In this document: one piece after another, positions 1 through 39,628 of the stretch | Layout: every line of letters begins with the position of its first letter | How positions within the stretch are numbered: position 1 is the first letter of the stretch | Source of the DNA: Gammaproteobacteria bacterium | GTDB taxonomy: Bacteria > Pseudomonadota > Gammaproteobacteria > Pseudomonadales > JAHFSE01 | Direction: 5' to 3' | DNA length: 40,927 nucleotides | NCBI GenBank assembly: GCA_023265895.1 | Contig: JAHFSE010000011.1 | Span: forward strand, 1 to 40,927 | Notes under the pieces: model-generated | What the model saw: only the letters and a program-made list of their open reading frames with translations | Told to the model about the DNA's origin: nothing | Databases searched by the model: none | Position numbers and translations under genes: made by a program

Positions 1-1
1 A

Positions 2-460
2 CTAAAAGATCGCCCTATTCAAAGTCGCGTGCTCATTTTACTGACAGATGGCAGCAATACAGCTGGCGCCATTGCACCCTTGCAAGCAGCTCAACTCGCT
101 GCGAAACAAAAATTGAAAATTTATACCATTGGTGTGGGCGCACGTACAGCGACCATTCCCGGACTTTTTGGTTTCGGTGCGCAAACCGTGTCAACCTCTG
201 ACTTAGATGAAGAAACGCTCACACGCATTGCACAGCAAACAGGTGGACGTTATTTCCGCGCCGATAATACGGAAACTTTAAAACAAATCTATCAACAATT
301 AGATCAGTTAGAACCCTCTCAAGCAGCCAAAATTCTGTATCGTCCAAGAACCACCTTATTTTATTGGCCGCTGGCGTTAGCTTTTATTTTAAGTCTAGCC
401 ATGAGCGTCTATTGGCTCAAACCCGTTAGCTTTTTTTCTATAAATTTTTGGCGCAGGTGA
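2..460 (+). CDS. batA: VWA-domain protein, BatA-like (5'-partial, runs off window start)
   Basis: Frame is open from the window edge (no upstream stop; the track start GTG 29 is an artefact). The translation LILLTDGSNTAG...IYTIGVGA...GGRYFRADN is the C-terminal half of a von Willebrand A domain and is followed by a hydrophobic C-terminal helix. Stop TGA 458-460 overlaps the next start. Confidence 0.75.
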   Translation, partial: LKDRPIQSRVLILLTDGSNTAGAIAPLQAAQLAAKQKLKIYTIGVGARTATIPGLFGFGAQTVSTSDLDEETLTRIAQQTGGRYFRADNTETLKQIYQQLDQLEPSQAAKILYRPRTTLFYWPLALAFILSLAMSVYWLKPVSFFSINFWRR

Positions 461-2247: not shown

Positions 2248-2261
2248 TTGAGGATGTGACG

Positions 2262-4001: not shown

Positions 4002-4010
4002 AGGACTTTT

Positions 4011-4502
4011 ATGATCACTCAAACTGAATTATGCCCTTGCTGTAGTCAAAAAAACTTTGCGCACTGTTGTCAACCATTATTACAAGGCCAACCCGCAACC
4101 AGCGCTGAACAATTGATGCGCTCTCGCTACACGGCCTATTGTGTAGGTGATCAAGCTTATTTAACCCGTTCGGAATGCCAAGCATCAGCAAATGAAACAA
4201 ACATACCCAATCATGAATGGATAAGTTTACAAATATTAGCAACCCATAAAGGTTCTGCGAAAGATAAACAAGGCATGGTGGAGTTTGTCGCTTTTTATCA
4301 AGGAGATCACCACCATCATCACCATGATGGTGAATGTTGCGATACAGATCCGCAGCAATTACATGAGCGGGCCTATTTTATTCAAAAAGACGGACATTGG
4401 TATTATCAATCCGGCGAATTATTACCTGCCATTAAAATAGGCCGTAATCAATTTTGTTGGTGTGGCAGTCAAAAGAAATTTAAACAGTGCCATGGTCGTT
4501 AA
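4011..4502 (+). CDS. ychJ: YchJ-family (UPF0225) protein with N- and C-terminal SEC-C zinc-binding motifs
   Basis: CPCCSQKNFAHCC at the N-terminus, CWCGSQKKFKQCHG at the C-terminus, central RSRYTAY signature. Confidence 0.8.
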   Translation: MITQTELCPCCSQKNFAHCCQPLLQGQPATSAEQLMRSRYTAYCVGDQAYLTRSECQASANETNIPNHEWISLQILATHKGSAKDKQGMVEFVAFYQGDHHHHHHDGECCDTDPQQLHERAYFIQKDGHWYYQSGELLPAIKIGRNQFCWCGSQKKFKQCHGR

Positions 4503-4540
4503 AATTGACTAGACTGCCTTCGAAAGCGGTTTATGACTGC

Positions 4541-4882
4541 TCAATTCTGAATTGGATTAACAAGATAAAAAGGTTCGGAATCTCCAGCATCCATACGAGT
4601 GATGGGAACTGTAACACGCACCCTGAAAGGCATTCGACGACAAAAGTCGCTGCGGGTTCTGACAAGGGTCAAACGATGGTCACGGATTTCTGCACGAAAA
4701 TGTTTCGCTTGGGTACAACCATGACTTTCAACACCAAACTGCACGCCCGCTGAGGTAATTTCCACCTGACCTAACAAACGCAATGACTTGGACGCATCAA
4801 GCCCAGCCATTGCGACCACACTGAATAAAAGCAGAAAGCTACTGAACAATAACACTGAAATTCGACCCAGCCTACCCATCAT
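4541..4882 (-). CDS. small secreted hypothetical protein, translationally coupled to the upstream protease gene
   Basis: ATGA start/stop overlap at 4879-4882. N-terminal hydrophobic signal-like segment ISVLLFSSFLLLFSVVAMA. Two Cys residues. No family recognised. Confidence 0.5.
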   Translation of the reverse strand: MMGRLGRISVLLFSSFLLLFSVVAMAGLDASKSLRLLGQVEITSAGVQFGVESHGCTQAKHFRAEIRDHRLTLVRTRSDFCRRMPFRVRVTVPITRMDAGDSEPFYLVNPIQN

Positions 4883-23653: not shown

Positions 23654-26600
23654 TTATCGAATCACGCTAGAAATCGCCACTTGAGTCACCTTAGGCGCAT
23701 CATGGGTGCTTGATTCTTTCAACGAATGACCGGCTGGAATTAAGGCAAGAATAAAACCTAAACTCAGCAGTAAACTTTTAAACGGACGCTGACCATCACC
23801 TCCCACCATTCGAGTCAGCTCACCTAACTGTGCAGCACTATTTTCACCCGTATGTTGATTCAATAATTGCATATGCTGCTCTAGCTGTTTAATACGATCA
23901 TGCACTTTATTCGATTCCATTAACGGCTTCAGTACAACTGGCTCTCTTGCTGGTGTCATCGGCGATAGTGACTGTTTCTTCAGCTCAGCCACCTCATGGG
24001 TTAATGCTGTAAAAATATTTTGATACTCTCGATTCATCGCCTGCATCGCATCTTGCAGTTGTTTAACTAAGGGCGCCGACGCATCTTGATGAGTATCCTT
24101 TACTTGAACCAACTGACGGTGTAATTCAGTCACCTGCAAAACCAACTCACGATGCTGTAACTCACTTTGATCTAAGCGCTTTACCCAAGCTTGTTCACGT
24201 TGAGCTAATGCTTGCATAAATTGTTGCGATTCCATCGCTGTTACACCCACTTGTTGCAATTTGCTCTCAAACTGTTGCATCCAAGTTTCCACCTGTTGAT
24301 GCATCGATTGATTACTTTCCAACTCCTGCCGTACCAAAGTGGCATATTCTCTTAATTCAGAAAATTGTCGATTGGCCTGACCATTCCAATACACCTGCTC
24401 CTGCTGAAATTGTGCAGATCCATCTTGCACCTGTTGCGCCTGCTGCAACTGTTGTTGAACTTGCTGCTCAGCCTGTTGTGTTTTCGACAAACACTCATTG
24501 ACGTGCACCGCCATAGCATTCAGCAATTCTTTCGCCTGCTCCCATTTTTTTGAATTTTGTTCTGCAGAATCGCTATAGGCCTGCGCACTATTTAACAAAG
24601 ATTCTGTTTGCTGATATTTTTGTTCAATTTTCTGAATCCATGCAGATACTTTTTGTACTTGCTGATCCATATCATGATACATAGATTGACAACTACTTCT
24701 GACTTCAATCGCTTGCTGCACATGCTCTTGTGTTGCACCGGAATAATGTAAAAATTGCTGCTCCACTGTCTGCAATTTTTTCCATAATTCATGAGACTCA
24801 TTTAACAAATCACGAGTTTTTTGCATCTGACTGGCGGTGACTTGCTGAGTGGAAACACTATTCGCAATAATATGTTCCAACTCAAGATGTTTCGCCGTTA
24901 AAGTTTCCTGTAGGGCCGTAATACTACGCTGCTGTTGGGTCAACAGAGCCTGTTGATCGTGAATATTAGCTTGAAACAATTGCACCTGATCGATGTTTTC
25001 CAACACAACCTGCTGAGTATGCTGATTAATCGCTGTAAGGTTTTTTGCCTCTGCCAAAATCGTCTGTGATGTTTGTTGTTGTTGATTAAATACTAATTGA
25101 TCCGCTTGCTGCTGAGCAAACATTGCCTCAGAACTTGTTTTCATCGATTCATACAAATCGATTATTTTCTGTAATTCTTTACGCTGGACTTCATCTGATA
25201 CTGACTTTCTATCCATGACTTCTTGTTGCGCGGAAACTGTTTTAAGAATTTCCTTAGCAGAACATAATAATTTTTGATTATCTGATTTTAGCTCTACCAA
25301 TTCCTCCTGAATAGAATGTACCTGCTGTACACTATTATTCATCGAGAAAGATAATACCTCCACGGTAGCCTGTTGCTCCAACATCAGAGCATGGGTATTT
25401 TCAACTTGTTTTTGCAACGTCTGACAAGCTTCATGCGTCGCAGTAGAAGCAGAAGTTACTTCCTCTGCACGGGTACAAATAACCTGCATTTCTTCTCGGC
25501 AAGATTGCATCCAAACCATGGAATCATCGGTTTTTTTGTGCATTTCTGTTGCAGAAATCAAAGCTTGCTCAGAAGCAAAATGCAAAGTATCTAACGCATT
25601 ACGATACACCTCCATCTTCTGCTGATGTTGCTGCAACAAAGCATCCACTTCAGTTTTTTGATGCGCACCTTGATCTACCAAACCACGACATTCGGTTAAT
25701 ACCAAGCCAGCCAAATGACGCAATTCACTCCCTTCTTTAATCCCTTGATGAATATTTTGTTGTTGATCAAATAAAGAAGCATTGATTTCAGAAATTTTTT
25801 CTTGTTGTTTTTGATGTTCCAATAGATTTAGATTTATTTTTTCATCTAAATCCCTAATAGATTTTAAACCTTCCAAAACAACACGCTGAGTTTTTCTATT
25901 CATTTCTGACAATGCATTTAATTCAATTAACTTATTATCCACTGAATGAATAAACTCAGCCTGTTGAACAGAGCAGGACTGCTTAAACGATTCCACATTC
26001 GTCTCAACAGATTGGCACTGAGCATTTTGACGTTCAACAATGAGTTTATATTGCTCTTGTTGATTCTTAAGATGATGAGCAATATCACGCAATTGAGATA
26101 ATTTTTTGGTGTATTCTGCATGGAGATTTTGACTTTTCTGATATAAAGTCTGACTTCCAATCAATGCTTCTTGAGTTTGAATTTGTGATAATTCATTGGC
26201 TTTAACCAATGTTTCAAATTGATTTTTTTGCGTATCCGAAAGCATCAATAAATCTTTTGATTCCTTCAATAAATCAGCAATATTCTTCTGCATATTTTTC
26301 ATCTGCTCAGCAGATTGTGCTTGAGATTCAGAATCTTCAGAACATTTGGTTTGCAATTGTTGATAATTGCTGTAAGTTTTTTCTATTAATGCTGCAAAAT
26401 GTGCATTATCTTGTGTTAATTGATTTAACTGAATGGATTGTGCTTCTGTTTTTTCCGTTAAATCATGTGCTTTAGCATGGGTTAACTCTACTGCAGCTAA
26501 CATAGCCTCTACTTGTTGCTGCGTATGCTCTGCCTTCCCATAATAGGTATTGACTTGATCTAATAACTCATGAAAAGTTTCTTTCATTTCTAACTGTTGC

Positions 26601-29600
26601 TGAATACCCACTTGTATTTGTTCATCAGAACACTGGACCAACTGATTGACTTTTTCAAACAGATTCAACAATTCTTTTTGAGAGGCATTGACCTCCGTTT
26701 TTTGCTGGTTTAATGCCTCTAGAAAATAAGACCTCATGGACTCTAACTGAACAGCACGCTGCTCATCACGCTGCCCAGACAATGCATAATTTTCCTGCAT
26801 TGCCAAACATTCTTGATAAACATGATGAATATCATGAGAAAGTGCTTGGGTAGATGAATTTTGTTCACCAATTTTATTTAATAAATCAGCTAATTCTACT
26901 CTAAAGGCTTGATGCTCAGATCGCCCCGTATCCACATAATCTTTCACACTGATATTTAAAGATTCACATTTTGAAAACAGTTCATCAGCGCGGCCATGCA
27001 AAGCATTGCATTGAGATTCTTGTAATTGAGCCTGATTCAATAACACTGAAAATTTTTCTTCGAACAGAAAATTCATTGCTTCTTTTTGCTGCTGACCTTG
27101 ATTGAGTTGTTCGCTGGCACAACTCATTAATTCATTCACTTTATAAAATAATTCTGCCAAATCTTGGCGCGTGACTTCAAGTTGAGTTTTATATTGACTC
27201 ATTTCATCCAAAAAGTTTTGCTGCATGGCATCGATCTGCTGAGAATGCATTTCACCCCGCTCAGATTCTGCGAGTGTCGCCTGTTGTAGGCTTTGACATT
27301 CATGATAAATCCTAGCCATTTCATCAGCAATTGATTGAGTCACGGCATTTTGTCCAGCAACACGCTCTAACAAATTTTGCATCTCTGATTTCAAGACTTC
27401 ATTTGCTTGACGTTCTTCACCAAAACGATCAACCACTTGATTTTTTAACGCAGTATTCTCCATCACCATGCCATGAACCATATCATGCAACAGATTTGCT
27501 TGTTTTCTTTGTTCTTCTGCTTGTACCGTTAAATCAGAAAATCTATTTTGAAACTCTATAATTTTTTGATTATTAGACTCAGAAACAGTCAAAACTAATT
27601 TTGCATGATCTTTAATATCATTCACTTCATCTTTTATTTGATGCAAGCATTCTTGCTGAGCAACTGTTTTTTCATGAAGATCACGGGTATCCAAATGAAT
27701 TTTCTGAACATGATCAAACATTTCATAAATGTTTATTTTAAGCGCTTCAGATTCATAATATTGCTGTTGAATTTTTTCTTCTAATTGTTTGAAATCATTT
27801 TTCAGCTCTAATTTTTGCTCAGAGCTTGACTGCAATTGTTGATCAGCGCGCAAGACTAAATGATTTACCTGATCAAATAACTTCATTAAATCTTGATTGG
27901 CAGCATCCAAAACAGATTGATGACTTAACAAATCCGACAAAAATGTCTTTTGAATAAACTCCAAACGTTCAGAGTGTCCCTCATTAACGCGACTTTCTTG
28001 AGCAATTTGATCTTGCAACTGCAAACAAAATTGATGCGCCCGCACCAACTCAGACGATAGTTGATTGGTCATATCATTTTGCTGATTTACCTGATTCAAC
28101 AATTGAACAACTTCGTCTTTAAATTCCTGATAATCCGATTGAGATAATAATTTCTCTTCAGCTATATTTTTATTAATGGATTCACACTGAATCAAAACTG
28201 AATGCATCTGTTCATATAATTCATTAAAATGTTGCTGATGCGATTCGGACTGAATCATCATATCAGAAAATTTCTGTTGAAAGCCTAATACGGTAGAAGC
28301 ATGTGATTCAGCAATAACCAAAGCAATTTTTGCCTTATCACTGACTTCGCTCACTTCTTCAGATATCGCAATAAATTCCTGTTGTTGTACCGCCAGTTGA
28401 TTTTCTACTGCCCTAGTCAATTGATAGGCTGTATCTTGAGACTTTTCAGCAGAACGCACCATGAAATTAATTTTTTCCTGCATCTGCTCAGATTCATGTC
28501 GATAGCTTTCCATTTGACTCATTAAAATATCAAAGGATAAACGCATGTCTTCTTGCTGATCAAAACCAGACTTTAATTGTTCATCTGAGCGATGAATCAA
28601 TTGATTCAATTTTTCAAATAATTGTGATAAATCTTGATTTGCTAAATTCAACTGATTTTGATGATTAGAAATTTCTGAAAGAAAAGCCCGCTTAGTTTCT
28701 TCAAGTTGAACATCACGTACTTCGACTTTCTGTAGCCCATCAACAACTTCTACCTGTAAACGTACACACTCGTGATAAACCTGATTAAGTGCATCGGAAT
28801 CATTTTTTGAACGCTCATTTTGCGCATGCATTTGCTCAAGAAGGTGTTGCATTTCCGCCTTCAAAACTCGAGTAGTTTCTAAATCAACAGCACGATCTTC
28901 ACTCGATGCAGCATTCAATTGCTCACATCTCTGTAATACGTCGTTTACTTGATGATGTAACGCTACAGAAATATTTCGTTGCTCGCTAGCCTGCAATAAT
29001 AATTCAGAAAATTGAGCCTGAAATGCCTTAGATTTTTCTAGTTGTTCCGACAGTAATTGCTCTTGTTCTGACGCCAAATAAGATAATTTGGTATTAGTCA
29101 ATTCATGAGATTCAATAACTTGATGGGTTTTCTGTACATCTTGTCTTAATATTTGAATATCAGATAATAAACCTTGCAAAGATTGCTGGCTTTCCACTTG
29201 AAAAAATTCGGCCTTATTATGTAATGATTGCGCTTTTTCACATAACTCATTTAATATGATTTCTTTTTGTTGATGGCCCTCTATTAATGCTTCTACTCGA
29301 CTCCATTGCATTTCTTGCGTTTTAAATTTTTGTTGAAATTGATTGATTAATTCATTTGCTTCACATTTCAGTGCTGTCCAATACTGTTGATCTTTCAACA
29401 TACTTTGCAGCGAATGCTCCACTTGTATTTTAGTTTGGCAAGCTTGCTCTGTACTTTCTTCTAAATTTTTTAAATGTTGACGCGCATCAGAAAAGAATTG
29501 ATCTAATGCTTGCTTATCTTGTTTTATGCTCGATAATTGATCTTCTAAACGCCGATCAAATCCTTGCGCGCTATCTAAATAATGTTGTAGTAACAGTTTT

Positions 29601-30919
29601 TTTTGATCCGCATCTTCACAGAGTTTAAAAACACGACGATTTAATTGAGTGGATTCAGAAAAAATGGTGTGAATACTGGATTCCATCTCACCCATAGCCG
29701 ATTTTAATGTTTGCATTTCATATCGTTGTTCTTCTTGAAGATCTGTTTTTTGTAATACTTTCTCCATCACCTCTTGCGCTACGATTTGTAAGTGCTGATT
29801 TTCAGCATTCATGACTTGCATATCAGAAGTTTGCTTTTCTATATTCTCACGCACAGACTGAACGAGAGTTAATGAATCGCTAGCATCTTTTGCTGCCTTT
29901 AAAGCAGCAGATTTTGCTAATTCTATTTGCGCTAATGTAGATTCAACCAAAATAGATGCAGATTGATTTTGCTTTCTTTGATCTTGAAATTCACCTTTTA
30001 AAATCTCAACATGTTGCTTCATTAATTGCATATCACGATGCAATCGACGACTTTCATCTACATAGTTTTGACTTTCTTGTAATGAGGCTTGTAAATATTT
30101 TTTAGCTGCTAATATTTCTTGTTCTGATTGCACCTTTAACTCTGCACATTGGCGATTCACCGCTTCTATTGAAAATAAACTGCGCTGACTTTTTTCAGCC
30201 GTAGCTATCCAATCACCTACTTCTTTTTCTAAACTCATTTTTTCTTGTAATACTAGGTCTTTTGCTTCAGCGCACTCTATCATGGCTTGATTAGCTAATT
30301 GCAACGATTGCTGGGCCAAATTTTTAGAATGATCGACTGTCTGCGTTAATTGAATAATTTGTTGTTCCAGCTCAGCAGTATTTTGATGTTTTGCTTCAGC
30401 ACGCGTCATTAATTCTAGAACTCTTGCTCTTTCTTGCTCAATATCCTGTTTAAGAGCACGTAATTCGTAATTGTCACTTTTAGCGACATGTTGAATGCTA
30501 TCAACATCATGAAGTTGTCGCTGCAATTGACTTGTTATTTGGTAATGTTGCTGATTTAAACGTTCAACCAACTCATTCACATTACCTAATTCAGCATGTA
30601 ACCGCGTGGATTCTTTGAATAAATATTTTGCCTCAGCTAATTCTTTTTGTGCCTGCTCAACAAATAATGCCACTTCACTTTGAATATTTTTTTTACCTTG
30701 ACTGAGTAAATCTTGAATTTCTTCTTCATCTATTTTCGATTTTTCTTGAATCATTGCAGCATTTGGACGTACAGACTGGGTAAAGAAAATGCGCCCATTC
30801 ATATCTGAAGTTGATGTTGCAGCACTGGTTTCAGTAGGTGAATTTTTATCTAATCTAATAGAACGAGAAAACAGTGATCTAATTCGATGTTGCTGTTCTG
30901 AAGTATGATCATTTGACAT
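23654..30919 (-). CDS. giant (2421 aa) Gln/Glu/Leu-rich coiled-coil protein with a single C-terminal transmembrane anchor
   Basis: Uninterrupted 7266-nt ORF. SD AAGGA is 9 nt upstream of ATG 30919. No signal peptide. Only one hydrophobic helix, SLLLSLGFILALIPAG (nt 23720-23782 including flanks), 21 aa from the C-terminus. No enzymatic motif recognised. Confidence 0.85.
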   Translation of the reverse strand: MSNDHTSEQQHRIRSLFSRSIRLDKNSPTETSAATSTSDMNGRIFFTQSVRPNAAMIQEKSKIDEEEIQDLLSQGKKNIQSEVALFVEQAQKELAEAKYLFKESTRLHAELGNVNELVERLNQQHYQITSQLQRQLHDVDSIQHVAKSDNYELRALKQDIEQERARVLELMTRAEAKHQNTAELEQQIIQLTQTVDHSKNLAQQSLQLANQAMIECAEAKDLVLQEKMSLEKEVGDWIATAEKSQRSLFSIEAVNRQCAELKVQSEQEILAAKKYLQASLQESQNYVDESRRLHRDMQLMKQHVEILKGEFQDQRKQNQSASILVESTLAQIELAKSAALKAAKDASDSLTLVQSVRENIEKQTSDMQVMNAENQHLQIVAQEVMEKVLQKTDLQEEQRYEMQTLKSAMGEMESSIHTIFSESTQLNRRVFKLCEDADQKKLLLQHYLDSAQGFDRRLEDQLSSIKQDKQALDQFFSDARQHLKNLEESTEQACQTKIQVEHSLQSMLKDQQYWTALKCEANELINQFQQKFKTQEMQWSRVEALIEGHQQKEIILNELCEKAQSLHNKAEFFQVESQQSLQGLLSDIQILRQDVQKTHQVIESHELTNTKLSYLASEQEQLLSEQLEKSKAFQAQFSELLLQASEQRNISVALHHQVNDVLQRCEQLNAASSEDRAVDLETTRVLKAEMQHLLEQMHAQNERSKNDSDALNQVYHECVRLQVEVVDGLQKVEVRDVQLEETKRAFLSEISNHQNQLNLANQDLSQLFEKLNQLIHRSDEQLKSGFDQQEDMRLSFDILMSQMESYRHESEQMQEKINFMVRSAEKSQDTAYQLTRAVENQLAVQQQEFIAISEEVSEVSDKAKIALVIAESHASTVLGFQQKFSDMMIQSESHQQHFNELYEQMHSVLIQCESINKNIAEEKLLSQSDYQEFKDEVVQLLNQVNQQNDMTNQLSSELVRAHQFCLQLQDQIAQESRVNEGHSERLEFIQKTFLSDLLSHQSVLDAANQDLMKLFDQVNHLVLRADQQLQSSSEQKLELKNDFKQLEEKIQQQYYESEALKINIYEMFDHVQKIHLDTRDLHEKTVAQQECLHQIKDEVNDIKDHAKLVLTVSESNNQKIIEFQNRFSDLTVQAEEQRKQANLLHDMVHGMVMENTALKNQVVDRFGEERQANEVLKSEMQNLLERVAGQNAVTQSIADEMARIYHECQSLQQATLAESERGEMHSQQIDAMQQNFLDEMSQYKTQLEVTRQDLAELFYKVNELMSCASEQLNQGQQQKEAMNFLFEEKFSVLLNQAQLQESQCNALHGRADELFSKCESLNISVKDYVDTGRSEHQAFRVELADLLNKIGEQNSSTQALSHDIHHVYQECLAMQENYALSGQRDEQRAVQLESMRSYFLEALNQQKTEVNASQKELLNLFEKVNQLVQCSDEQIQVGIQQQLEMKETFHELLDQVNTYYGKAEHTQQQVEAMLAAVELTHAKAHDLTEKTEAQSIQLNQLTQDNAHFAALIEKTYSNYQQLQTKCSEDSESQAQSAEQMKNMQKNIADLLKESKDLLMLSDTQKNQFETLVKANELSQIQTQEALIGSQTLYQKSQNLHAEYTKKLSQLRDIAHHLKNQQEQYKLIVERQNAQCQSVETNVESFKQSCSVQQAEFIHSVDNKLIELNALSEMNRKTQRVVLEGLKSIRDLDEKINLNLLEHQKQQEKISEINASLFDQQQNIHQGIKEGSELRHLAGLVLTECRGLVDQGAHQKTEVDALLQQHQQKMEVYRNALDTLHFASEQALISATEMHKKTDDSMVWMQSCREEMQVICTRAEEVTSASTATHEACQTLQKQVENTHALMLEQQATVEVLSFSMNNSVQQVHSIQEELVELKSDNQKLLCSAKEILKTVSAQQEVMDRKSVSDEVQRKELQKIIDLYESMKTSSEAMFAQQQADQLVFNQQQQTSQTILAEAKNLTAINQHTQQVVLENIDQVQLFQANIHDQQALLTQQQRSITALQETLTAKHLELEHIIANSVSTQQVTASQMQKTRDLLNESHELWKKLQTVEQQFLHYSGATQEHVQQAIEVRSSCQSMYHDMDQQVQKVSAWIQKIEQKYQQTESLLNSAQAYSDSAEQNSKKWEQAKELLNAMAVHVNECLSKTQQAEQQVQQQLQQAQQVQDGSAQFQQEQVYWNGQANRQFSELREYATLVRQELESNQSMHQQVETWMQQFESKLQQVGVTAMESQQFMQALAQREQAWVKRLDQSELQHRELVLQVTELHRQLVQVKDTHQDASAPLVKQLQDAMQAMNREYQNIFTALTHEVAELKKQSLSPMTPAREPVVLKPLMESNKVHDRIKQLEQHMQLLNQHTGENSAAQLGELTRMVGGDGQRPFKSLLLSLGFILALIPAGHSLKESSTHDAPKVTQVAISSVIR

Positions 30920-31131: not shown

Positions 31132-32463
31132 TTATGACGCTTTAAAAATCAGCAAGGCATTATGCCCACCAAAAGCAAAGGATTGACTGATTGCATGCCT
31201 ACAGGTCAAAGAATAATTTTGAGTAGGCAAAATAAAAGGCGCTATGGGTTGTTGTAAATGTGCGTTCCCATGTACTTGCTGATCTAACAAAGACTGTATT
31301 GTGACAATCGCTTCAATGGCACCAGATGCACCGATCGCATGACCCATCCAACCTTTGGTTGAATTGACCACGACCTTATCACCAAATAATTGTGTGATGA
31401 CTTGGCTCTCTACTGCATCATTTTTTTCAGTGCCAGTACCGTGGGCATTAATATATTGAATAGCCTGCGCAGTTAACCCTGCTTCTGTTAATCCTTGCTG
31501 AATTAAGTGAATTAATTCACGACCCGAGGGATCAGGAATCACTAAATGATAGGCATCAAAAGATTCTGCATAAGCAACAATTTCAGCTAACGGCTTGACG
31601 CTATCACCCCATTGCTGGCGTTGTTGAAGACAATCGGCAGTTTCTAACAATAGAATACCAGCCCCACCTTCGGAAAATAAAAAACCATCCCGCTGTTGAT
31701 CGAAGGGTTTACAACTTTGATCTATGGGATTTGCTGCTGAAGTTAAAGCACCCATGCGATCAAAGGCTCGAAAACAAGCCCCCACATCATCACCTAACAT
31801 TTCTGCGCCTCCCACAATAGCCATATCTAACTGACCATTTCTAAGGGCGCGATAGGCTTCGCCTAAAGCAACAGTGCCGCTGGCACAGGCTTGACAATAG
31901 GTTTTCACTGGGCCGTGAATACCATAACGAATGGCTATGGCTGCTGCAATTGCGTTAGGCATTTGTCGAGGCACTGTGAGTCGATTGGCTTCCGTAACGT
32001 GAGGAAATAACAGAGGTATATTAGTCGACGATGATTGCGAGGATTTCTCTTTAAAATGATGATAAGCATTGGCTAAGGTTGTGGTCACACCACCAATGCC
32101 TGTCCCCATAAAAACACCGATACGATGAGGATGAATAGAACCATCCTTTGCAGATAAGCGCTCTGATAATCCTGCTTGTTGCAGCGCTTCCGCCACACCT
32201 ATCATCGCCATTAATGTCACTGGATCATACTGCAACAAATCCATTTTTTTATAACCCCACTGAGTGGGATTCAATGGCGGCAAAGGCACATAGACCTGAC
32301 TCACATAACGATGTCTATCAGTCCAGTGTGTGGGAATGGGTTGAATGACAGAAGTTTGCGCTAGAAGATTTTGCCACAGACAGTCAACGCCAGCGCCATA
32401 AACTGTATAAGCGCCTAGACCCGTAGCAAAAACTTGAACATGTGATGATGTCATAACAGTCAA
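31132..32463 (-). CDS. beta-ketoacyl-ACP synthase, FabF/KAS II-like
   Basis: Cys-His-His triad motifs CQACASGTVALGEA, INAHGTGTEKND and GHAIGASGAIEA. C-terminal FAFGGHNALLIF. Confidence 0.9.
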   Translation of the reverse strand: MTVMTSSHVQVFATGLGAYTVYGAGVDCLWQNLLAQTSVIQPIPTHWTDRHRYVSQVYVPLPPLNPTQWGYKKMDLLQYDPVTLMAMIGVAEALQQAGLSERLSAKDGSIHPHRIGVFMGTGIGGVTTTLANAYHHFKEKSSQSSSTNIPLLFPHVTEANRLTVPRQMPNAIAAAIAIRYGIHGPVKTYCQACASGTVALGEAYRALRNGQLDMAIVGGAEMLGDDVGACFRAFDRMGALTSAANPIDQSCKPFDQQRDGFLFSEGGAGILLLETADCLQQRQQWGDSVKPLAEIVAYAESFDAYHLVIPDPSGRELIHLIQQGLTEAGLTAQAIQYINAHGTGTEKNDAVESQVITQLFGDKVVVNSTKGWMGHAIGASGAIEAIVTIQSLLDQQVHGNAHLQQPIAPFILPTQNYSLTCRHAISQSFAFGGHNALLIFKAS

Positions 32464-32479
32464 TGTAATTTCATGAAAA

Positions 32480-32749
32480 TCAGACAGAGGAATCCAATGA
32501 CTGTGCTTTCAATTGCTGCATCACTAATTGCACCACATCTTGAAAAGTAACTAATTGAGTTAATTTTTCTTCATCCAGATCTTGGCCCAACTCAGCCTCC
32601 AGTAACGTCACTAAACTGACCACATCAAAGGAATCCAACCCTAAATCCTGCACCAATCGAGTATCTGGAGTAATTTTTTCCCGCTCAATATTCATTTCTT
32701 CGGCAATCAAATTTTTTACCATTTGTGCCACTTCATCCATGGTTTGCAT
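32480..32749 (-). CDS. stand-alone acyl carrier protein
   Basis: The track ORF extends to 32905, but SD AAGGAG lies 7 nt upstream of the internal ATG 32749. Phosphopantetheine site DLGLDSFDVVSLV. 89 aa, acidic. Confidence 0.85.
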   Translation of the reverse strand: MQTMDEVAQMVKNLIAEEMNIEREKITPDTRLVQDLGLDSFDVVSLVTLLEAELGQDLDEEKLTQLVTFQDVVQLVMQQLKAQSLDSSV

Positions 32750-32802
32750 ACAACATCTCCTTGCTGTTAATACACTTCGCTGACATCTCCCAATCAAACA
32801 TT

Positions 32803-34869
32803 TTATTCGGTATATAAAAACCACAGGGGCGCATAAGTCACGATCAATAAAGTGATACCCATGACGGCCAAAGGTAATAACCAATATTCTCGGCGATACC
32901 ACCAATGCTGCTCAACCTGTGTAAAAGCAAGTGACGATTCCTGATCACCCACGACTTGTCGAGTTAACAAACGGTTTAAAGCTACCGGTGGACTTAAATA
33001 ACCTAATTCAAAGGCCACTAAGGTCATCATCCAAAAATGTACAGGAATAACACCCTGCTTATACGCCAACGGTGCCAAGGAACCTGTGACTAAAACAACT
33101 GCGCCGAAAGGGTCCATAATCATACCAATCACCACTAACGCCGCTAAGAAATAGGTCATACTCAACCACAATTCATTCGCCATCGGAAATACTGAAAATA
33201 TATCAGAGCGCCCAATCGCGCCACCGGTCACAAAGGATAAACCCATTAATAAAATTAAAGCGCCGATATGCACCGTAGTATCGGTCGTTGCTTCTCGAAT
33301 GGTTTGTTCAAACGAGCTTGCTTGAATCCTCTCTGACGTCGTTGCTTGTAATTTTTTCGCAAAAAATTTCTCATACACCAACCAACTTAATACCACGACG
33401 GGCAAAATCAATGGTGCAGAAAATTCATTAAGGTGAGTACCCAGCAATAAACCATATCCCAAAGCAATCACAGCAAAAATAACAACATAAGGCATCAGAC
33501 GCCCGATTGCTTGTAATGAAGGCAACAACGCTGTTTTAGGTGAAGCCAATACCCAGGGCGTTTTTTTAGTTAAAAACGCCATGATAAAAAAGATCACAGC
33601 ACTCAACAAAAATACATTCACCCCCCAAGCATATAATTGATCCGTCACCACTTCTTTATTTAGAGCAGCGATTAATACCACGAGTAAACAAGGATACAAC
33701 ACCACACCAGAACTACCTGTCATAGCTGTTACTGCTAAAGCTAACTGACGACGGGCACCGACTCGGCGTAATTCTTGATATACCACAGCACCCATAGCAA
33801 TAATAATAATTCCAGAGGCACCGGTATAAGCAGTGGGCACTGCCATCACAATAATTGCAACCAAGGCCAATAATTCAGGCGGTAATTGCCAAGGCTTAAA
33901 AACACTAAAAACCAGCTGGCCCAGTTGCGTTCGCTTTAACAACATGCCGACCCAAATATACAGCCCAACATTTAAAAACATTTTTGCCTGTTCTAAAATT
34001 TGGCTGAAAAAAATCGCAATGCCTGCAAAGTGATGTTCGACATAAAAAAAGTAAGTTCCAGCGATAAAAGACATATAAACGTAAAGCGGCACTGTTAATA
34101 AAGCATGTCCCCAAGACGCATTTTCCTTAGGTAAATCGGCTGCACCTTTCATTAATTGGTAGAGATTGGTTAATAATAAACTAGCAAATCCAGCGATTAA
34201 TAAGATGTAAACCGCTGGATCTGTGACGGCAACACCGGAAGCATAAATTGATTTTCGATAACTCCAGGCAGCAATTAACAAAATACTGTGACTTAAAATA
34301 CTAGCGCTATTACAGACATAATAATCCAGTCGTGAGCTCACTACTCTAAACGAAATATGATGTTGAGTTCGAGATGCAGTTAATGCACAAACCCATAACA
34401 ACAAAAGTAAAATGACTTCCTGTTGGTCGGTGACAAATAAATTAAAGCCAGCAATATAATATTCGACCGAACGAAACACTTTAACGGCAGGCGTTAAATC
34501 ACGCAGCGTTTGTTGATAAACCTGATGCTGTTGCTGACACACCACTTGCTGACGTTGTAGAGAAATCCGTGCAGCATCACGATTAAAGGGTTCATCTGCT
34601 GACAACAAATCAATTTCATCACTACTGCTGACGCCGGATTGTGTCGCTAATTGATCTAATGCAGCATTAATATTTGCATGGGCATCGCAGCTAGGTTTGA
34701 CGGGGTCAATTCGTAGAACAAAATAATCATCCCATAACCAATGGCCTATTTTGAGAAATTCTGCATGCAAATAACTGCTGGTACCCGCAATCAAAACACA
34801 GACCAATAAAATCACCGCGGGAAAAGAAGAAAACCATTCTCGAGCGGAGCGATTCTTAATCATTTTCAT
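32803..34869 (-). CDS. TRAP transporter fused permease (DctQ-like N-terminal part + DctM large subunit)
   Basis: 688 aa and polytopic. AVPTAYTGASGIIIIAMGAVVYQELRRVG...AVTAMTGSSGVVLYP and DPFGAVVLVTGSLAPLAYKQGVIPVHFWMMTLVAFELGYLSPPVALN resemble the conserved DctM regions. The N-terminal ~300 aa has 4 TM with a ~110-aa loop. Confidence 0.75.
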   Translation of the reverse strand: MKMIKNRSAREWFSSFPAVILLVCVLIAGTSSYLHAEFLKIGHWLWDDYFVLRIDPVKPSCDAHANINAALDQLATQSGVSSSDEIDLLSADEPFNRDAARISLQRQQVVCQQQHQVYQQTLRDLTPAVKVFRSVEYYIAGFNLFVTDQQEVILLLLLWVCALTASRTQHHISFRVVSSRLDYYVCNSASILSHSILLIAAWSYRKSIYASGVAVTDPAVYILLIAGFASLLLTNLYQLMKGAADLPKENASWGHALLTVPLYVYMSFIAGTYFFYVEHHFAGIAIFFSQILEQAKMFLNVGLYIWVGMLLKRTQLGQLVFSVFKPWQLPPELLALVAIIVMAVPTAYTGASGIIIIAMGAVVYQELRRVGARRQLALAVTAMTGSSGVVLYPCLLVVLIAALNKEVVTDQLYAWGVNVFLLSAVIFFIMAFLTKKTPWVLASPKTALLPSLQAIGRLMPYVVIFAVIALGYGLLLGTHLNEFSAPLILPVVVLSWLVYEKFFAKKLQATTSERIQASSFEQTIREATTDTTVHIGALILLMGLSFVTGGAIGRSDIFSVFPMANELWLSMTYFLAALVVIGMIMDPFGAVVLVTGSLAPLAYKQGVIPVHFWMMTLVAFELGYLSPPVALNRLLTRQVVGDQESSLAFTQVEQHWWYRREYWLLPLAVMGITLLIVTYAPLWFLYTE

Positions 34870-34895
34870 ATAATTTTTTGATCCAAAGCAACGCC

Positions 34896-34917
34896 CCCTC
34901 TTTTTTGAAAGAGAGGG
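34896..34917 (-). other. intercistronic hairpin between the SBP and permease genes
   Basis: CCCTCTTTT / AAAGAGAGGG gives 9 bp with one bulged base and a 3-nt loop. The C-run/T-run/A-run/G-run design matches the hom-thrC hairpins. Confidence 0.5.
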
Positions 34918-34951
34918 CAGGGGAAGTTAAACTGATCACCGACAACTTTAA

Positions 34952-35968
34952 TTATTCTCGATCAGGCGCGGTACATTCCGAACCCGTGGGCTCCAAATTA
35001 CAGCGCACTTTTCTGAGCAGGGTTAACATTTTAGCGTCATAAATTCCTTTATTACGCAATTCAATGCGCGCTTTTCTAAACATCTCTCGATAGCCTCGTT
35101 GGTGTTCATCGGAGACAGCAATCCACCAACGATCGGCAATGGTTTTATCGGCTTTAGTCACCACCTGCATAATAGTGTCATAACGACTAAAACCATAGGC
35201 GCGAGATTTTTCACCAAATCCTGCAGGAAAATCTTTTTGTCGAATTAATACTTGAAGCGACAACTGCCCTACTGCAAACTTAACGACACCACCCTTGGGT
35301 TCCAGACCTTTATACAATTCCATGGCTTGATAGACCACCGCAGGCCCAACACAAACATCCACTGAACCATTATTAAATTGACTGTACATTCCCGCAATGG
35401 ATGCACTCACAGGAGAAGCGCCTAATTTTAAAACCAATTCTCGCTGAGAAGAATCGGCTTCAAATACTGCGAAACGCTTACCGGACAAATCATTCACTGT
35501 TTTTAAATTACGATCTTTTAAATATAAATACACAGCGCCACCAGGCGCTAACATGGCTACTTCATATTCACCACGCTTCATCAATGCAGCCGCTTTAGGC
35601 TCAGATAAAATTTTCATGACGGTTTTTACATGGGCATACGTAGGCATCGCACCGACGGAATCTAACGTACCTGTGAATGGATTAAATTGACGACCTCGCG
35701 CACCGGTCAATCCCACTGCATCACAGGCACCGGATTTAAAATCTTCTGCAGCCACACGTTCATCGGTATAAGGTTTTACCGTAAATTTAACACCCCATTC
35801 TAACGCTGCCGCTTGATAGTCTTTCATTTGTTGAAAAACTGGGCCATTGCCACCAATCGGATCATAGACACAGAAAGTCTTATTGACTAACGCTTGTACT
35901 TGACTGACGCCTCCCAATAAACACACAGCAACGCACAAGATCCAACTACTTTTTATTCTCACAGTCAT
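34952..35968 (-). CDS. periplasmic solute-binding protein, TRAP DctP-like (probable)
   Basis: Signal peptide ...WILCVAVCLLGGVSQVQA. About 340 aa. ERVAAEDFKSGACDAVGLTGARGRQFNPFTGTLDSVG resembles the DctP E..AL..G.lD...... f.p pattern. Sits between the lipoprotein and the permease. Start is ambiguous (TTG 35977, ATG 35968, GTG 35962; the SD GAGGAG best fits GTG 35962). Confidence 0.55.
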   Translation of the reverse strand: MTVRIKSSWILCVAVCLLGGVSQVQALVNKTFCVYDPIGGNGPVFQQMKDYQAAALEWGVKFTVKPYTDERVAAEDFKSGACDAVGLTGARGRQFNPFTGTLDSVGAMPTYAHVKTVMKILSEPKAAALMKRGEYEVAMLAPGGAVYLYLKDRNLKTVNDLSGKRFAVFEADSSQRELVLKLGASPVSASIAGMYSQFNNGSVDVCVGPAVVYQAMELYKGLEPKGGVVKFAVGQLSLQVLIRQKDFPAGFGEKSRAYGFSRYDTIMQVVTKADKTIADRWWIAVSDEHQRGYREMFRKARIELRNKGIYDAKMLTLLRKVRCNLEPTGSECTAPDRE

Positions 35969-36005
35969 GCTCCTCAATCAGTCAATAATACAAGCTGCTC
36001 ACTTT

Positions 36006-37064
36006 TTATAAGTCATTCAGCTCAATACCTTTTATATCATCATTGGATTGAGCATCATCCCAAAATGTGCCCAACCCTTTTAGTGGGGTCCGAGTTCCCT
36101 TTGCTTCTGTCCATAACCGATCAGAAACAGCCTGTATTTGCTGCGTGGCTATTTCATCAAATAATTTAACAGCTGGATCTACGGGTACTTGCTGTTTTGC
36201 TTGTGCATGTTGACGAATCACTCGTTTCACTTCAGCCATGTTGCCCTGAGAAAGATAAGTTTGTAATTCTAACACCTGCGCTAAGCGGACGTGTTGATTT
36301 AAGCCTAAGGCAGATGCTTCAGCCAATCGTTGCAGCGGATGCTCGCCTTCTGGCGCAGCACCAGGAACCGCTGCCCATACCGCCGCTTGAATCGCCATCG
36401 GCATACCCCACCAACGTTGATTATCCAAACATTGTGCACCACGAGCCACTTTTTGCGGCGTATCCAGTGGTACACCAACAATTGTATCAGCACCTAAATC
36501 TGAGAAAGCGGCTTCTAATCCACTGAGTAATCCTGCAAACCAGAACAATTCATCCTGAGCATGATGAAAGCGAGGACAAACACTACCCGGCTCTCCCATG
36601 GCCTGAATCAAACTTAAATAACCTGCGTATTGGCGTTGAGCAGCTTGACCCAGTAAGCGTTTTTGCTGAATACGCGCGTCTTGTGCTTCGATGGCATTCC
36701 CTTGTTTTAACGCACGCAAATAACGCAGCTCCGCTTCCCAAGCCTGAGTCTCCGCACAACTACCAGACATCATATTCATCAGAATTTTTAATTTTTCCGG
36801 TGATGCCGTCACAGTACCAAAAGAAGCTAGGAAAGGTCCAAAAGCCTGACTCAAAGCACACGCTGCTTCGGGGTCATCAGTGGTTAATAAATAAGGAATT
36901 GCGTGCGATTGAGAATATCCCGTCAATAAATCGCCCGTGCTGCGATAGACCAAACTACAACCACTCATCAGGAATAAGCATGCAAGCAAAAGAAAAACAC
37001 CGCAGCACCGTTTTAGCAAAGTAGGGATCCATCCTGCATTAGCCTGTGCGATGTTCTGTTTCAT
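36006..37064 (-). CDS. all-helical lipoprotein, TRAP T-component (TatT)-like (tentative)
   Basis: Track start is TTG 37076; GGAG lies 6 nt before ATG 37064. Lipobox LFLMSGC. Helix-rich, Ala/Leu/Gln-rich, about 350 aa. First gene of the TRAP cluster, as in TPR-protein-associated TRAP systems. The family assignment comes from architecture and context, not from verified homology. Confidence 0.45.
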   Translation of the reverse strand: MKQNIAQANAGWIPTLLKRCCGVFLLLACLFLMSGCSLVYRSTGDLLTGYSQSHAIPYLLTTDDPEAACALSQAFGPFLASFGTVTASPEKLKILMNMMSGSCAETQAWEAELRYLRALKQGNAIEAQDARIQQKRLLGQAAQRQYAGYLSLIQAMGEPGSVCPRFHHAQDELFWFAGLLSGLEAAFSDLGADTIVGVPLDTPQKVARGAQCLDNQRWWGMPMAIQAAVWAAVPGAAPEGEHPLQRLAEASALGLNQHVRLAQVLELQTYLSQGNMAEVKRVIRQHAQAKQQVPVDPAVKLFDEIATQQIQAVSDRLWTEAKGTRTPLKGLGTFWDDAQSNDDIKGIELNDL

Positions 37065-37267
37065 GCGAAGCTCCAACCAAATCCATTATTCAATATTTTT
37101 GTTACGTGCACATTCTAGCGGTCATTTAAACCAAGCTCAGCATTGTACCCAGCCTATCCATGAACTCAAGAGATAATCCGCGGCAAGTGATTTGAAAGCC
37201 TCACAAAACCAGGTATCCTCGCCGCTCTAGAGCTATTAAATTTAATTTTTTACGCGCGGCACAAGGA

Positions 37268-39628
37268 ATGATTGTGAGTGATCAGGCTGCTTCTATTATT
37301 CAGACCCACTACCGCAATTGCCACTTATGTGCAGCGAGTTGTGGTTTAAAAATTCAACTGCAACAAGGCCGCATTGTTTCTATCACGGGGAACGAACAAG
37401 ATCCTATCAGCCAAGGTGCTCATTGCGTTCACGCCACATTAATTGGCGATCAACAACAAGATCCCGATCGTATTGATCAGCCATTGCTCAAAACAGAACA
37501 AGGTTGGCAACCCCTAAGTTGGTCCGCAGCCTTTCACTGGATTCGCGCACACATTAAGCCCATCCAAAAAAAATACGGCCCCCATGCCATCGCCAGCGTT
37601 ACCGGTCATGCGCTGCAACAACATCCCGCTCATCAATTAGCGGGGCATATTTTTCAGAAAGCACTTAACAGCCGCAATCAATTTAATGCGCAAACCGAAA
37701 CACAGCGCGCTACCCGGCTGGCCCAATTAAAAATGTTTGGGCATCCAGAAATTCACTGGCGCCCCGATCTGAGTCATACACAGTTAGTGCTATGCCTAGG
37801 TCATAACTGGCTGAAGCGCAACTCGGAATCCACTGCACCATCACCCGCACAAAAAGATTTTGCGCAGCTGAAAGCACGCGGTGGACGCCTGATTGTGCTC
37901 GATCCACATCAGCATGAAACCGCAGCTTTAGCGGATCAACATTTCTTTATCAAACCCGGTACCGACGCGTTATTTTTATTGGCTATTCTCCACATTATGA
38001 TTCGTGAAAGCTGGGTCCCCTGGGAAAAAATTGAGCCCTATTGTTCAGGGTTAGACACGCTCAACAATATTGTGAGCCAATTTACACCAACCAAGGTCGC
38101 TGCTATCACCCAAATCGCTGAAGCTGATTTAATGGATATTGCTCGAGCACTGGCTCAAGCACCTAGCAGTGTTGTGTTAGCAGGATCTAGCCTCTACCAG
38201 CAGCAACAAGGCTGCTTGAACGCTTGGTTAATTCATACTCTGAACTTGTTAACGGGGCACAGCAATCAACCGGGCGGCATGTTACTCAATGATCTCAGCG
38301 CCCATGAATTGAATATTGCCCATTGGCTACAACCCAAGGCACATTTCGATGCCTGCCGTAGTCAAGTTCGACAGTTACCCGAATTGATGAATGACTTGCC
38401 ACTGAGCGTATTGGCAGAAGAAATAACCGCACCAAACCCCGATTCAATTCGGGCATTATTTTGTATTCAAAGCAATCCATTACTGACAGGCCCCGCTCGA
38501 ACGACATTGGAAGCTGCGCTACAACAACTGGATTGTTTTATTGCCATCGACACCCATTTTAATGAAACCAATCGCCACGCCCATTTAATTTTGCCTACTC
38601 ATACACCGCTAGAACACAGCCAATTCAGTGAGCCACAACAACGACCCGGATTACGACAACAACTGCAATCTGCACCTGCGCTGTTTACTGCACCCAAAAC
38701 CGTGCAACCTTTATGGCAAATTTTGTTGAAACTGAGCCATGAACTCAAACCGCGCCACTGGCCTCTATGGGCACAGCCCCAGCGCTTACTTAAATTTCTC
38801 CAGCAAAAAGGCCCAGATCAAATTGTCGATTTACTGCTCAACACCAGTTTCTACGGCAAACCTTGGCACTGGCTCATGCAAACACACCAAACCTTAGAAA
38901 AACTGCGCTGGTTTGGCTCCACTTATCAAAGGAGCTGCCAAAGTGCCCACAAATTACTGACGCACCTCCCGACAAAACCAACGTCACTATGGTCTCGCCT
39001 CCAACAACGCATGACTCATCAACCGCGATCCATCGCATTAGACAGTCAAAAGTTACGACAATATCCTCACGGATTATCTCTCACACCCTTAGCACCTAAC
39101 GCACTGCTACGTTTCCCAACGTCCGATCGAAAAATACAACTGGCACCTAGCACTTTAACTCGACAAGTACAAACGCTGATTGAACAATTGCAATTGCCTA
39201 TTATGATGGATTATCCCTACACCCTCATCAGTCGAGGTCACAGCGATAATCAGTGGGGATTAGCCTATCGTCATTTAATTGAAAATCCAGAGATCCATGC
39301 CTATGCTTGGATGAATCGAATCGATGGCCGTAAACATAAAGTGCAGTCTGGACAATTGATCTGTATTGCCACGCCCCACAAAAGCGTCCTAATCAAGGTG
39401 ATGTTAGTCGATACGCTGATGCCCGGCGTTGTTAGTTTACCCCAGGGTTGGGGTTATTCCATTTCATCCACAACATTAGAAACGAGAGATCTAGTATCGA
39501 TTGGCGTTTCACTCAACACATTCATGGATGCCTCACAAATAGATCCCCTCACTGGTTCCATTGCAATTACGGCACTACCTGCACAAATTAAAAAAGCATC
39601 TATCCGCCAACAACAAATTGTTTTTTAG
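37268..39628 (+). CDS. molybdopterin (bis-MGD) oxidoreductase family protein
   Basis: N-terminal 4Fe-4S motif C18-x2-C21-x3-C25-x27-C53 (NCHLCAASCG...GAHC). LIVLDPHQHETA...FIKPGTDALF MGD-binding region. C-terminal beta-barrel domain (YPYTLISRGH...LMPGVVSLPQGWG). SD AAGGA abuts ATG 37268, so GTG 37274 may be the true start. Confidence 0.8.
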   Translation: MIVSDQAASIIQTHYRNCHLCAASCGLKIQLQQGRIVSITGNEQDPISQGAHCVHATLIGDQQQDPDRIDQPLLKTEQGWQPLSWSAAFHWIRAHIKPIQKKYGPHAIASVTGHALQQHPAHQLAGHIFQKALNSRNQFNAQTETQRATRLAQLKMFGHPEIHWRPDLSHTQLVLCLGHNWLKRNSESTAPSPAQKDFAQLKARGGRLIVLDPHQHETAALADQHFFIKPGTDALFLLAILHIMIRESWVPWEKIEPYCSGLDTLNNIVSQFTPTKVAAITQIAEADLMDIARALAQAPSSVVLAGSSLYQQQQGCLNAWLIHTLNLLTGHSNQPGGMLLNDLSAHELNIAHWLQPKAHFDACRSQVRQLPELMNDLPLSVLAEEITAPNPDSIRALFCIQSNPLLTGPARTTLEAALQQLDCFIAIDTHFNETNRHAHLILPTHTPLEHSQFSEPQQRPGLRQQLQSAPALFTAPKTVQPLWQILLKLSHELKPRHWPLWAQPQRLLKFLQQKGPDQIVDLLLNTSFYGKPWHWLMQTHQTLEKLRWFGSTYQRSCQSAHKLLTHLPTKPTSLWSRLQQRMTHQPRSIALDSQKLRQYPHGLSLTPLAPNALLRFPTSDRKIQLAPSTLTRQVQTLIEQLQLPIMMDYPYTLISRGHSDNQWGLAYRHLIENPEIHAYAWMNRIDGRKHKVQSGQLICIATPHKSVLIKVMLVDTLMPGVVSLPQGWGYSISSTTLETRDLVSIGVSLNTFMDASQIDPLTGSIAITALPAQIKKASIRQQQIVF

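Follow-up and report, generated by a model that had tools for sequence, protein, structure and literature searches.

Two separately conserved modules, a TRAP importer with an accessory lipoprotein and a carrier protein-ketosynthase pair, adjoin in a gammaproteobacterial genome

We analysed a stretch of 40,927 nucleotides from a gammaproteobacterium (contig JAHFSE010000011.1; hereafter the window, with all coordinates given on its forward strand) and focused on five co-directional minus-strand open reading frames (ORFs) that run from 37064 down to 31132. In order they encode a lipoprotein, a binding protein and a fused permease of TRAP (tripartite ATP-independent periplasmic) type, an acyl carrier protein (ACP) and a β-ketoacyl-ACP synthase (KAS) (Table 1). 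The reading that we favour, with a modest degree of confidence, is that two independent modules abut and probably share a single transcript: an importer for a hydrophobic ligand that resembles the tetratricopeptide repeat (TPR)-protein-associated TRAP transporters (TPATs), and an acyl-elongation cassette that resembles NodFE. TRAP systems with an accessory lipoprotein (TPATs) are already known, and so are dedicated ACP-KAS pairs. The unusual features here are a T-like lipoprotein family that lies beyond current models and its so-far unique juxtaposition with an ACP-KAS cassette.

The separate conservation of the two modules emerged from surveys made from either side. A scan of 185,579 species genomes was performed with an alignment of the lipoprotein family and the 79 best related loci were taken; these come from Methylococcales, Oleispira, Thalassolituus, Hahella, Oleiphilaceae, Marinobacteraceae and other Gammaproteobacteria, and the best matches of the window TRAP proteins lie in uncultured Gammaproteobacteria. 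When the five window proteins were used as tblastn queries against these loci, the complete lipoprotein-binding protein-permease triad was detected in 61 of 79, the lipoprotein gene lying directly upstream of the other two and on the same strand (61/79), while no ACP or KAS was detected in any. Sequence beyond the permease gene extends for at least 1.8 kb in 45 of the 79 loci and for at least 5 kb in 31. Clustering of the ORFs in the TRAP loci gave the same picture, with only the three TRAP genes widely common (81, 68 and 61 loci) and the next cluster at 23. The annotated flanks of the triad are variable and consist mostly of unrelated housekeeping genes, and no wider synteny with the window was found in the relatives apart from a molybdenum (Mo)-oxidoreductase gene in two of them (L014 and L028). 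The second of these keeps the divergent Mo-oxidoreductase upstream, yet has no ACP-KAS pair downstream.

From the other side, 85 loci bearing KAS homologues were examined (5 close homologues and 80 metagenomic loci). None of them contains TRAP genes, and an ACP gene adjoins the KAS gene in 75, nearly always directly upstream and usually with a gap of 0-25 nt. A preliminary description of the stretch, made from its letters alone, had joined importer, carrier protein and condensing enzyme into a single uptake-then-elongate route; conserved linkage of this kind did not appear, as the combination occurs in 0/79 TRAP loci and 0/85 KAS loci. The sole other instance of the five-gene arrangement lies on a 4.7-kb ENA contig from another sample (ERZ27279977; L094, positions 1-4689), which is 99.96% identical to window positions 32177-36865, with 2 differences in 4,689 bases. 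This contig is the same strain in another sample, so that the organism recurs but the linkage gains no independent support. A metagenome scan with the permease alone for closer relatives on longer contigs found none, the sole close permease relative (P0242) again being the same strain as the window. The TRAP-ACP-KAS adjacency is lineage-specific and defines no conserved import-and-elongate pathway.

Within the window the five genes are separated by gaps of 37, 82, 53 and 16 nt as read from the sequence, the last becoming 25 nt if the KAS starts at its ATG codon; the gene order, strand and spacing given in the preliminary description are all reproduced by the ORFs. The ACP-KAS pair is probably co-transcribed with the TRAP triad, which is plausible because all five genes share a strand, the 53-nt permease-ACP gap is unstructured (fold z = 0.09) and a scan of this gap (32750-32802) returned no terminator-like site.

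Turning to the proteins of the first module, the binding protein matches PF19582 (AdeT1_2) with an E-value of 5e-75 (253.1 bits against a cutoff of 27) over profile positions 113-393 of 394, and it matches Pfam DctP marginally (4.6e-5, 23.3 bits against a cutoff of 23.4). It carries a cleavable signal peptide without a lipobox. An AlphaFold2 (AF2) model (predicted local distance difference test score (pLDDT) 81.8) was compared with known structures using Foldseek, and because the top 50 matches were all TRAP binding proteins (E 2e-14 to 4e-12, target-normalized TM-score 0.60-0.74) the protein is, by its modelled fold, a TRAP P component. The best structural matches bind isethionate, dicarboxylates and sialic acid. 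In pairwise and profile alignments against 4n8y, 4n91, 4p1e and 4x8r, Ala167 of the window protein falls on the carboxylate-clamping Arg of the DctP structures (β-strand 6, G-x-K-[IVF]-R-V). The preliminary description had raised the absence of this Arg as a possibility; the residue is indeed gone, and the Ala in its place is nearly invariant throughout the binding-protein family.

The same replacement is found in TatPT homologues, which have Ala in place of the TRAP carboxylate-clamping Arg (reviewed in PMC5812351). AdeT1 and AdeT2 of Acinetobacter baumannii have been discussed in connection with drug resistance, as components of efflux or membrane fusion (PMC7687900), and a published analysis of the AdeT1_2 family judged it to be TRAP DctP-like (PMC11467057). 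The window binding protein is a clear member of this family (253 bits) and differs from AdeT1 and AdeT2 in that it stands in an importer-type TRAP operon; no Acinetobacter locus is among the 79 best TRAP relatives. That the AdeT family shares the Arg-to-Ala change with TatPT argues that 'AdeT' proteins are TRAP importer components, and that their ligands are non-classical and probably hydrophobic.

The permease matches PF06808 (DctM, 4e-16) and TIGR00786, shows a weak match to the isethionate DctMQ structure 9pym, and is 44-59% identical to its counterparts in the related loci. Its N-terminal ~257 residues contain, by hydropathy profile, a first transmembrane segment, a hydrophilic loop of ~110 residues and further hydrophobic segments; they returned no DctQ profile match and are presumed to be the Q-like part. 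The TRAP assignments of the preliminary description thus stand both for the binding protein, through the AdeT1_2 match and the DctP-type fold, and for the permease, through the DctM domain.

The lipoprotein has a signal peptide and the lipobox L-M-S-G-C (Cys36, with Ser at +2). The lipobox Cys is nearly invariant across the family, whose consensus is LSGCS, and there are four further invariant Cys among ~40 invariant positions; the four Cys fit a periplasmic location. The family comprises 365 clusters at 50% identity (E<=1e-3), with 298 relatives in GTDB species genomes, and identities of 45-59% among the matches listed. Neither Pfam nor NCBIfam contains a family for the window lipoprotein, NCBIfam giving only noise. 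The AF2 model (pLDDT 85.8) is all-helical, with 11 helices. This is thus a well-conserved family without a Pfam or NCBIfam model and a regular partner of AdeT-type TRAP systems, and its hosts include methanotrophs as well as Oleispira, Thalassolituus and other marine Gammaproteobacteria. Some JGI records call members of the family 'YceK', apparently from the lipoprotein N-terminus alone.

The name 'TatT-like' used in the preliminary description fits the lipobox and the helical character of the lipoprotein but fails as a family placement, whether by hidden Markov model or by fold. PF16811 (TatT) gave no match in 31 members of the lipoprotein family at E<=10, nor in 10 divergent members at E<=1, the latter being drawn from among the matches listed in an exhaustive profile search (1.84 billion representatives, 365 relatives). 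A profile search of PDB sequences with the lipoprotein returned no TatT chain. Foldseek comparison of the lipoprotein model with the PDB, in a library expected to contain the Tp0956, Es_TatT and BstC entries, returned no match at E<=0.001 (best E 0.013); the top 50, which comprised C3d, LGN and further helical proteins of a generic kind, included neither TatT nor BstC. The TatT fold is a helical ring of TPR-like hairpins round a hydrophobic pore (3U64, 8G52, BstC), to which the window model has no match. Membership of the TatT family found no support in Pfam, NCBIfam, the PDB profile search or Foldseek, and the 10 divergent members scanned gave no bridge to TatT. Any relationship of the modelled lipoprotein to TatT would be very remote. 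By gene position it is probably an analogue of the TRAP T component, and probably a functional analogue too, rather than a member of that family.

Comparison with the TPATs of Treponema brings out the same mixture. The gene order (accessory lipoprotein, P component, fused QM) is shared, both accessory proteins are periplasmic lipoproteins of helical structure, Ala stands for the conserved Arg in the P component, and TPATs are also found in free-living proteobacteria, including hydrocarbon degraders. In contrast to the TPATs, the window lipoprotein lacks a PF16811 match and any Foldseek similarity to solved TatT or BstC structures, and the window P component is a soluble AdeT1_2 protein, neither a lipoprotein nor specifically close to Tp0957.

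The host genera Oleispira and Thalassolituus are regarded as hydrocarbon degraders. In 13 Methylococcales-type loci an MlaE permease, an ABC ATPase and a 339-residue MlaD/MCE protein adjoin the TRAP genes, on the same strand in 12 (examples in Table 1). In some of these loci the set follows straight after the permease gene (with a 6-nt gap in L045), and in others it separates the lipoprotein gene from the genes for the binding protein and the permease. These neighbours hint that the TRAP family handles lipids or other hydrophobic compounds. Hydrocarbon degraders are among the bacteria with TPATs (reviewed in PMC5812351); long-chain fatty acids are ligands of TatT proteins, and sterols of BstC (PMC11713862, PMC10942540). 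For Tp0956 and Es_TatT, the complex with the P component and the hydrophobic ligand have been studied by cross-linking or co-crystallization and by lipid-binding assays (PMC11713862). Because of the analogy with TatT and TatPT, the host range and the Mla-like neighbours in the 13 methanotroph loci, we take the ligand of the importer to be hydrophobic.

It could be argued instead that the triad serves a small hydrophilic or amphipathic solute, with the lipoprotein as a structural or regulatory accessory and the ACP-KAS pair as an unrelated neighbour, possibly with a weak promoter of its own. The lipoprotein fails every TatT test, so that a hydrophobic ligand rests on analogy; the binding protein is structurally an ordinary DctP-type protein, with ligands of its best matches as given above; and in relatives the triad is flanked mainly by housekeeping genes with no relation to it. 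We nevertheless regard this alternative as quite improbable: the Arg clamp is missing throughout the family, which speaks against a classical carboxylate ligand, the host genera, including methanotrophs, Oleispira and Thalassolituus, match the range of TPATs (PMC5812351), and Mla-like genes are adjacent in 13 loci.

Two further arrangements were seen among the relatives. Many methanotroph loci carry lipoprotein and binding-protein genes as tandem pairs, twice over, before one permease gene, which suggests two ligand-capture pairs feeding one membrane unit. In five loci from Hahella and its relatives (L070, L079, L081, L084 and L086) the permease gene comes directly after the lipoprotein gene, and an AdeT-type gene between the two is lacking; here the binding protein may be encoded at another place, or else the lipoprotein can do without it and work with the permease alone.

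In the second module, the ACP matches PF00550 (PP-binding, 2.5e-12), and its DSFD motif aligns with the DSLD motif of solved ACPs. The protein is acidic (pI 4.05) and its gene has an AAGGAG Shine-Dalgarno sequence 7 nt before the ATG. The KAS contains the N- and C-terminal ketoacyl-synt domains of Pfam. Alignment to Thermus thermophilus FabF (1J3N) identified Cys190, His338, Lys367 and His372 as its catalytic residues, within the motifs ACASG, HGTGT and STKGWMGH, and all four are invariant in 30 members of the KAS family. The enzyme is thus predicted to be catalytically intact and FabF-like. The preliminary description had read the carrier protein, its DSFD site, its ribosome-binding site and the Cys-His-His triad correctly from the letters; the alignments add the Lys.

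The possibility that the pair represents extra housekeeping copies of AcpP and FabF for bulk fatty-acid synthesis may be considered at this point, since the top-scoring models are generic ACP and FabF and the catalytic residues are intact. The scores speak against it: the KAS reaches 298.2 bits against TIGR03150 (fabF), whose cutoff is 493.75, and the ACP 60.9 bits against an AcpP equivalog cutoff of 70.45. Because both fall below these cutoffs, neither protein appears from its sequence to be a housekeeping copy. Moreover, the KAS has an insertion of ~30 residues relative to FabF, common to its clade of enzymes of ~440-460 residues, each of which has its own ACP and lies in a specialized cluster. 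No fabD, fabG, fabH or fabZ gene lies nearby; as the preliminary description had also concluded, fab and polyketide synthase (PKS) genes are missing among the window ORFs of at least 100 residues, as are acyl-ACP synthetase genes. A housekeeping fab cluster was ruled out by the sub-cutoff scores and the lack of fab neighbours, and bulk synthesis is a very improbable role for the pair.

The closest non-self homologue of the KAS among 5.8 billion proteins is 44% identical, and homologues in the surveyed clusters range from 37 to 44% identity. Their loci fall into recurrent contexts. In the first, an ACP-KAS pair, in some cases preceded by a radical SAM gene, is followed by a signalling protein with a REC domain, with or without an enoyl-CoA hydratase-family gene, a hybrid kinase or an MMPL gene; the representative signalling protein has REC and HD-GYP domains, and that cluster was joined partly through the REC domain. 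This context resembles an rpf/diffusible signal factor (DSF) signalling cluster with its own ACP and KAS, a combination for which no description was found in the literature searched. In the second context, an ACP-KAS pair accompanies a divergent type III PKS and methyltransferases. Both share with the window the insertion-bearing KAS clade, the ACP-then-KAS order and the gaps of 0-25 nt. They differ in that their partners (the enoyl-CoA hydratase, HD-GYP regulator, radical SAM, type III PKS and MMPL genes) were not found in the window and that those loci have no TRAP genes. The ACP-KAS pair of the window thus belongs to a mobile cassette found elsewhere in signalling-like and alkylresorcinol-like clusters.

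NodF and NodE are the classical precedent for a dedicated ACP and KAS pair. As in that system, a private ACP gene lies immediately upstream of the gene for a FabF-like enzyme with an intact Cys-His-His triad, and no other fab genes are present, implying the use of the housekeeping type II fatty-acid synthase. The window differs from NodF/NodE in having no nod genes and no other tailoring or acceptor genes. In the arrangement that we favour, the first module is a self-contained TRAP importer (lipoprotein, AdeT-type binding protein and fused Q/M permease), widespread in Gammaproteobacteria. If the analogy holds, a hydrophobic ligand would pass from the lipoprotein to the Arg-less binding protein, and from there to the fused permease for cation-driven import. 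The second module is a widespread and portable two-gene ACP-KAS cassette of the NodF/NodE type; its dedicated carrier and condensing enzyme would draw on the housekeeping FabD, FabG, FabZ and FabI for the assembly of a special acyl chain. The cassette would be expressed by read-through from the TRAP genes, beginning 53 nt downstream of the permease gene.

A rival account treats all five genes as a dedicated salvage operon, in which a fatty acid, or another acyl or alkyl compound, imported by the TRAP system is loaded onto the ACP by a synthetase encoded elsewhere and then elongated or condensed by the KAS. In its favour, all five genes lie close together on a single strand, no terminator precedes the ACP gene, and the same arrangement occurs in a second sample. 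The Arg clamp is missing from the binding protein just as it is from TatPT-type proteins (PMC5812351), and a role in fatty-acid import has been proposed for TRAP systems of the TatT type (PMC11713862). Lipid-related partners also recur, in that an Mla-like system stands beside the same TRAP family in other lineages. Even so we consider this account unlikely: the combination is missing from all the surveyed TRAP and KAS loci, the second sample at 99.96% identity is the same strain, and no membership of the TatT family is detectable for the lipoprotein. Enzymes of the FabF type take acyl-ACP as their primer, and the loading step has no candidate, since the 41-kb window contains no acyl-ACP synthetase, acyltransferase or phosphopantetheinyl transferase. 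The lack of an ACP-loading enzyme had been noted in the preliminary description as well.

That import is followed by elongation is a guess, because the modules are separately conserved and are adjacent in one organism only. Functional coupling of the TRAP system with the ACP-KAS pair is possible but unsupported, and a mechanistic link between import and elongation is speculative and rather unlikely. The specific version, in which the TRAP system, assisted by a lipoprotein from a family not classified before, imports a hydrophobic acyl or alkyl compound, passes it to the private ACP and has it extended by the private KAS in a compact salvage operon, is distinctly unlikely. No description of such a compact import-and-elongate lipid salvage operon was found in the literature searched, and we know of no earlier case of such an importer feeding carrier-protein-bound acyl elongation. 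If true, it would be the first known secondary binding-protein-dependent importer to feed carrier-bound acyl elongation, and the coupling would give a handle on what TPAT-like TRAP systems carry.

Several points weigh against our preference for two independent modules. The contig of the closest relative (L009, 59-68% identity) stops inside the permease gene. The base composition of the ACP-KAS pair equals that of the host genes (GC at third codon positions, GC3, 0.33-0.40) and carries no sign of recent foreign origin; foreign origin, considered on the basis of composition, gave no signal, and since the composition matches the host, the arrival of the pair, if it was an insertion, was not recent. 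The modules share a lipid theme, and same-strand genes with short gaps are often functionally related, so that chance adjacency is not proven. Lastly, both the direction of transport and the hydrophobic substrate are inferred from the analogy with TatT, and the lipoprotein is not a detectable TatT.

Table 1. Positions of the features described in the window and, by locus, of examples from related loci
Feature	Position	Strand	Description
Lipoprotein, accessory T-like TRAP component	36006..37064	-	352 aa; lipobox, predicted all-helical
TRAP P component, AdeT1_2 family	34952..35968	-	338 aa; PF19582 match, TRAP fold
Fused TRAP membrane component	32803..34869	-	688 aa; DctM residues 258-649
Stand-alone ACP	32480..32749	-	89 aa; PP-binding match, Ser40 in DSFD
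FabF-like β-ketoacyl-ACP synthase	31132..32454	-	440 aa from ATG; 443 aa from TTG at 32463
GC-rich hairpin, binding-protein/permease gap	34892..34919	-	terminator-like site; 11-12 bp stem
Weak sigma-70-like promoter candidate, TTGAGT-16-TACAAT	37142..37169	-	consensus scan, 9/12 matches
KAS-homologue cluster examples	L113 1199-6795; L123 2660-7105; L136 3656-6530		within L096-L174, L003-L008
Mla-like set beside TRAP genes	L013 1159-3719; L016 10985-13548; L045 8340-9781; L035 5799-8365; L077 4467-7024		examples among 13 loci
Tandem lipoprotein/binding-protein pairs	L015, L023, L030, L032, L042, L047, L049, L058, L072

Candidate regulatory features of the operon were also recorded. The hairpin between the binding-protein and permease genes has a centroid fold of -18.1 kcal/mol (z = -1.96); it could be a partial terminator or an mRNA-stabilizing element governing how much binding protein is made relative to permease, and could raise the level of binding-protein mRNA. 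Upstream of the lipoprotein gene, the promoter-like site lies in a divergent intergenic region of 203 nt; it is a candidate only, as the scan returned 20 sigma-70-like sites against 14.9 +/- 4.2 in shuffled sequences, which is not clearly above expectation. Searches of the window for riboswitch-type RNA elements (Rfam) and tRNAs gave no matches.

Across the 203-nt region lies the divergent Mo-oxidoreductase gene (37268-39628, plus strand), at the distance given in the preliminary description. Its product has Fe4S4, molybdopterin and dinucleotide-binding domains and scores under every NCBIfam equivalog cutoff. The gene is also upstream of and divergent from the lipoprotein gene in the two relatives mentioned above (L014 5-205 and L028 6-1691, 32-43% identity), which hints weakly that it shares regulation or function with the TRAP module rather than with the ACP-KAS pair.

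The window contig derives from the metagenome-assembled genome of an uncultured organism and is also present in Logan and ENA assemblies. Its remaining genes in the window are those of an ordinary chromosome, among them a cytochrome c oxidase operon and a bat operon, together with recJ, thrC and hom. The KAS gene is immediately followed downstream by a gene for a Gln/Glu/Leu-rich protein of 2421 residues (23654-30919, minus strand), coiled-coil in appearance and with a single C-terminal hydrophobic segment (residues 2379-2397). No Pfam match is on record for it, and homologues are absent from all the related loci. The GC content of this gene (0.37, with GC3 0.29) is clearly below that of its neighbours (~0.43), and the gene may have been acquired horizontally.

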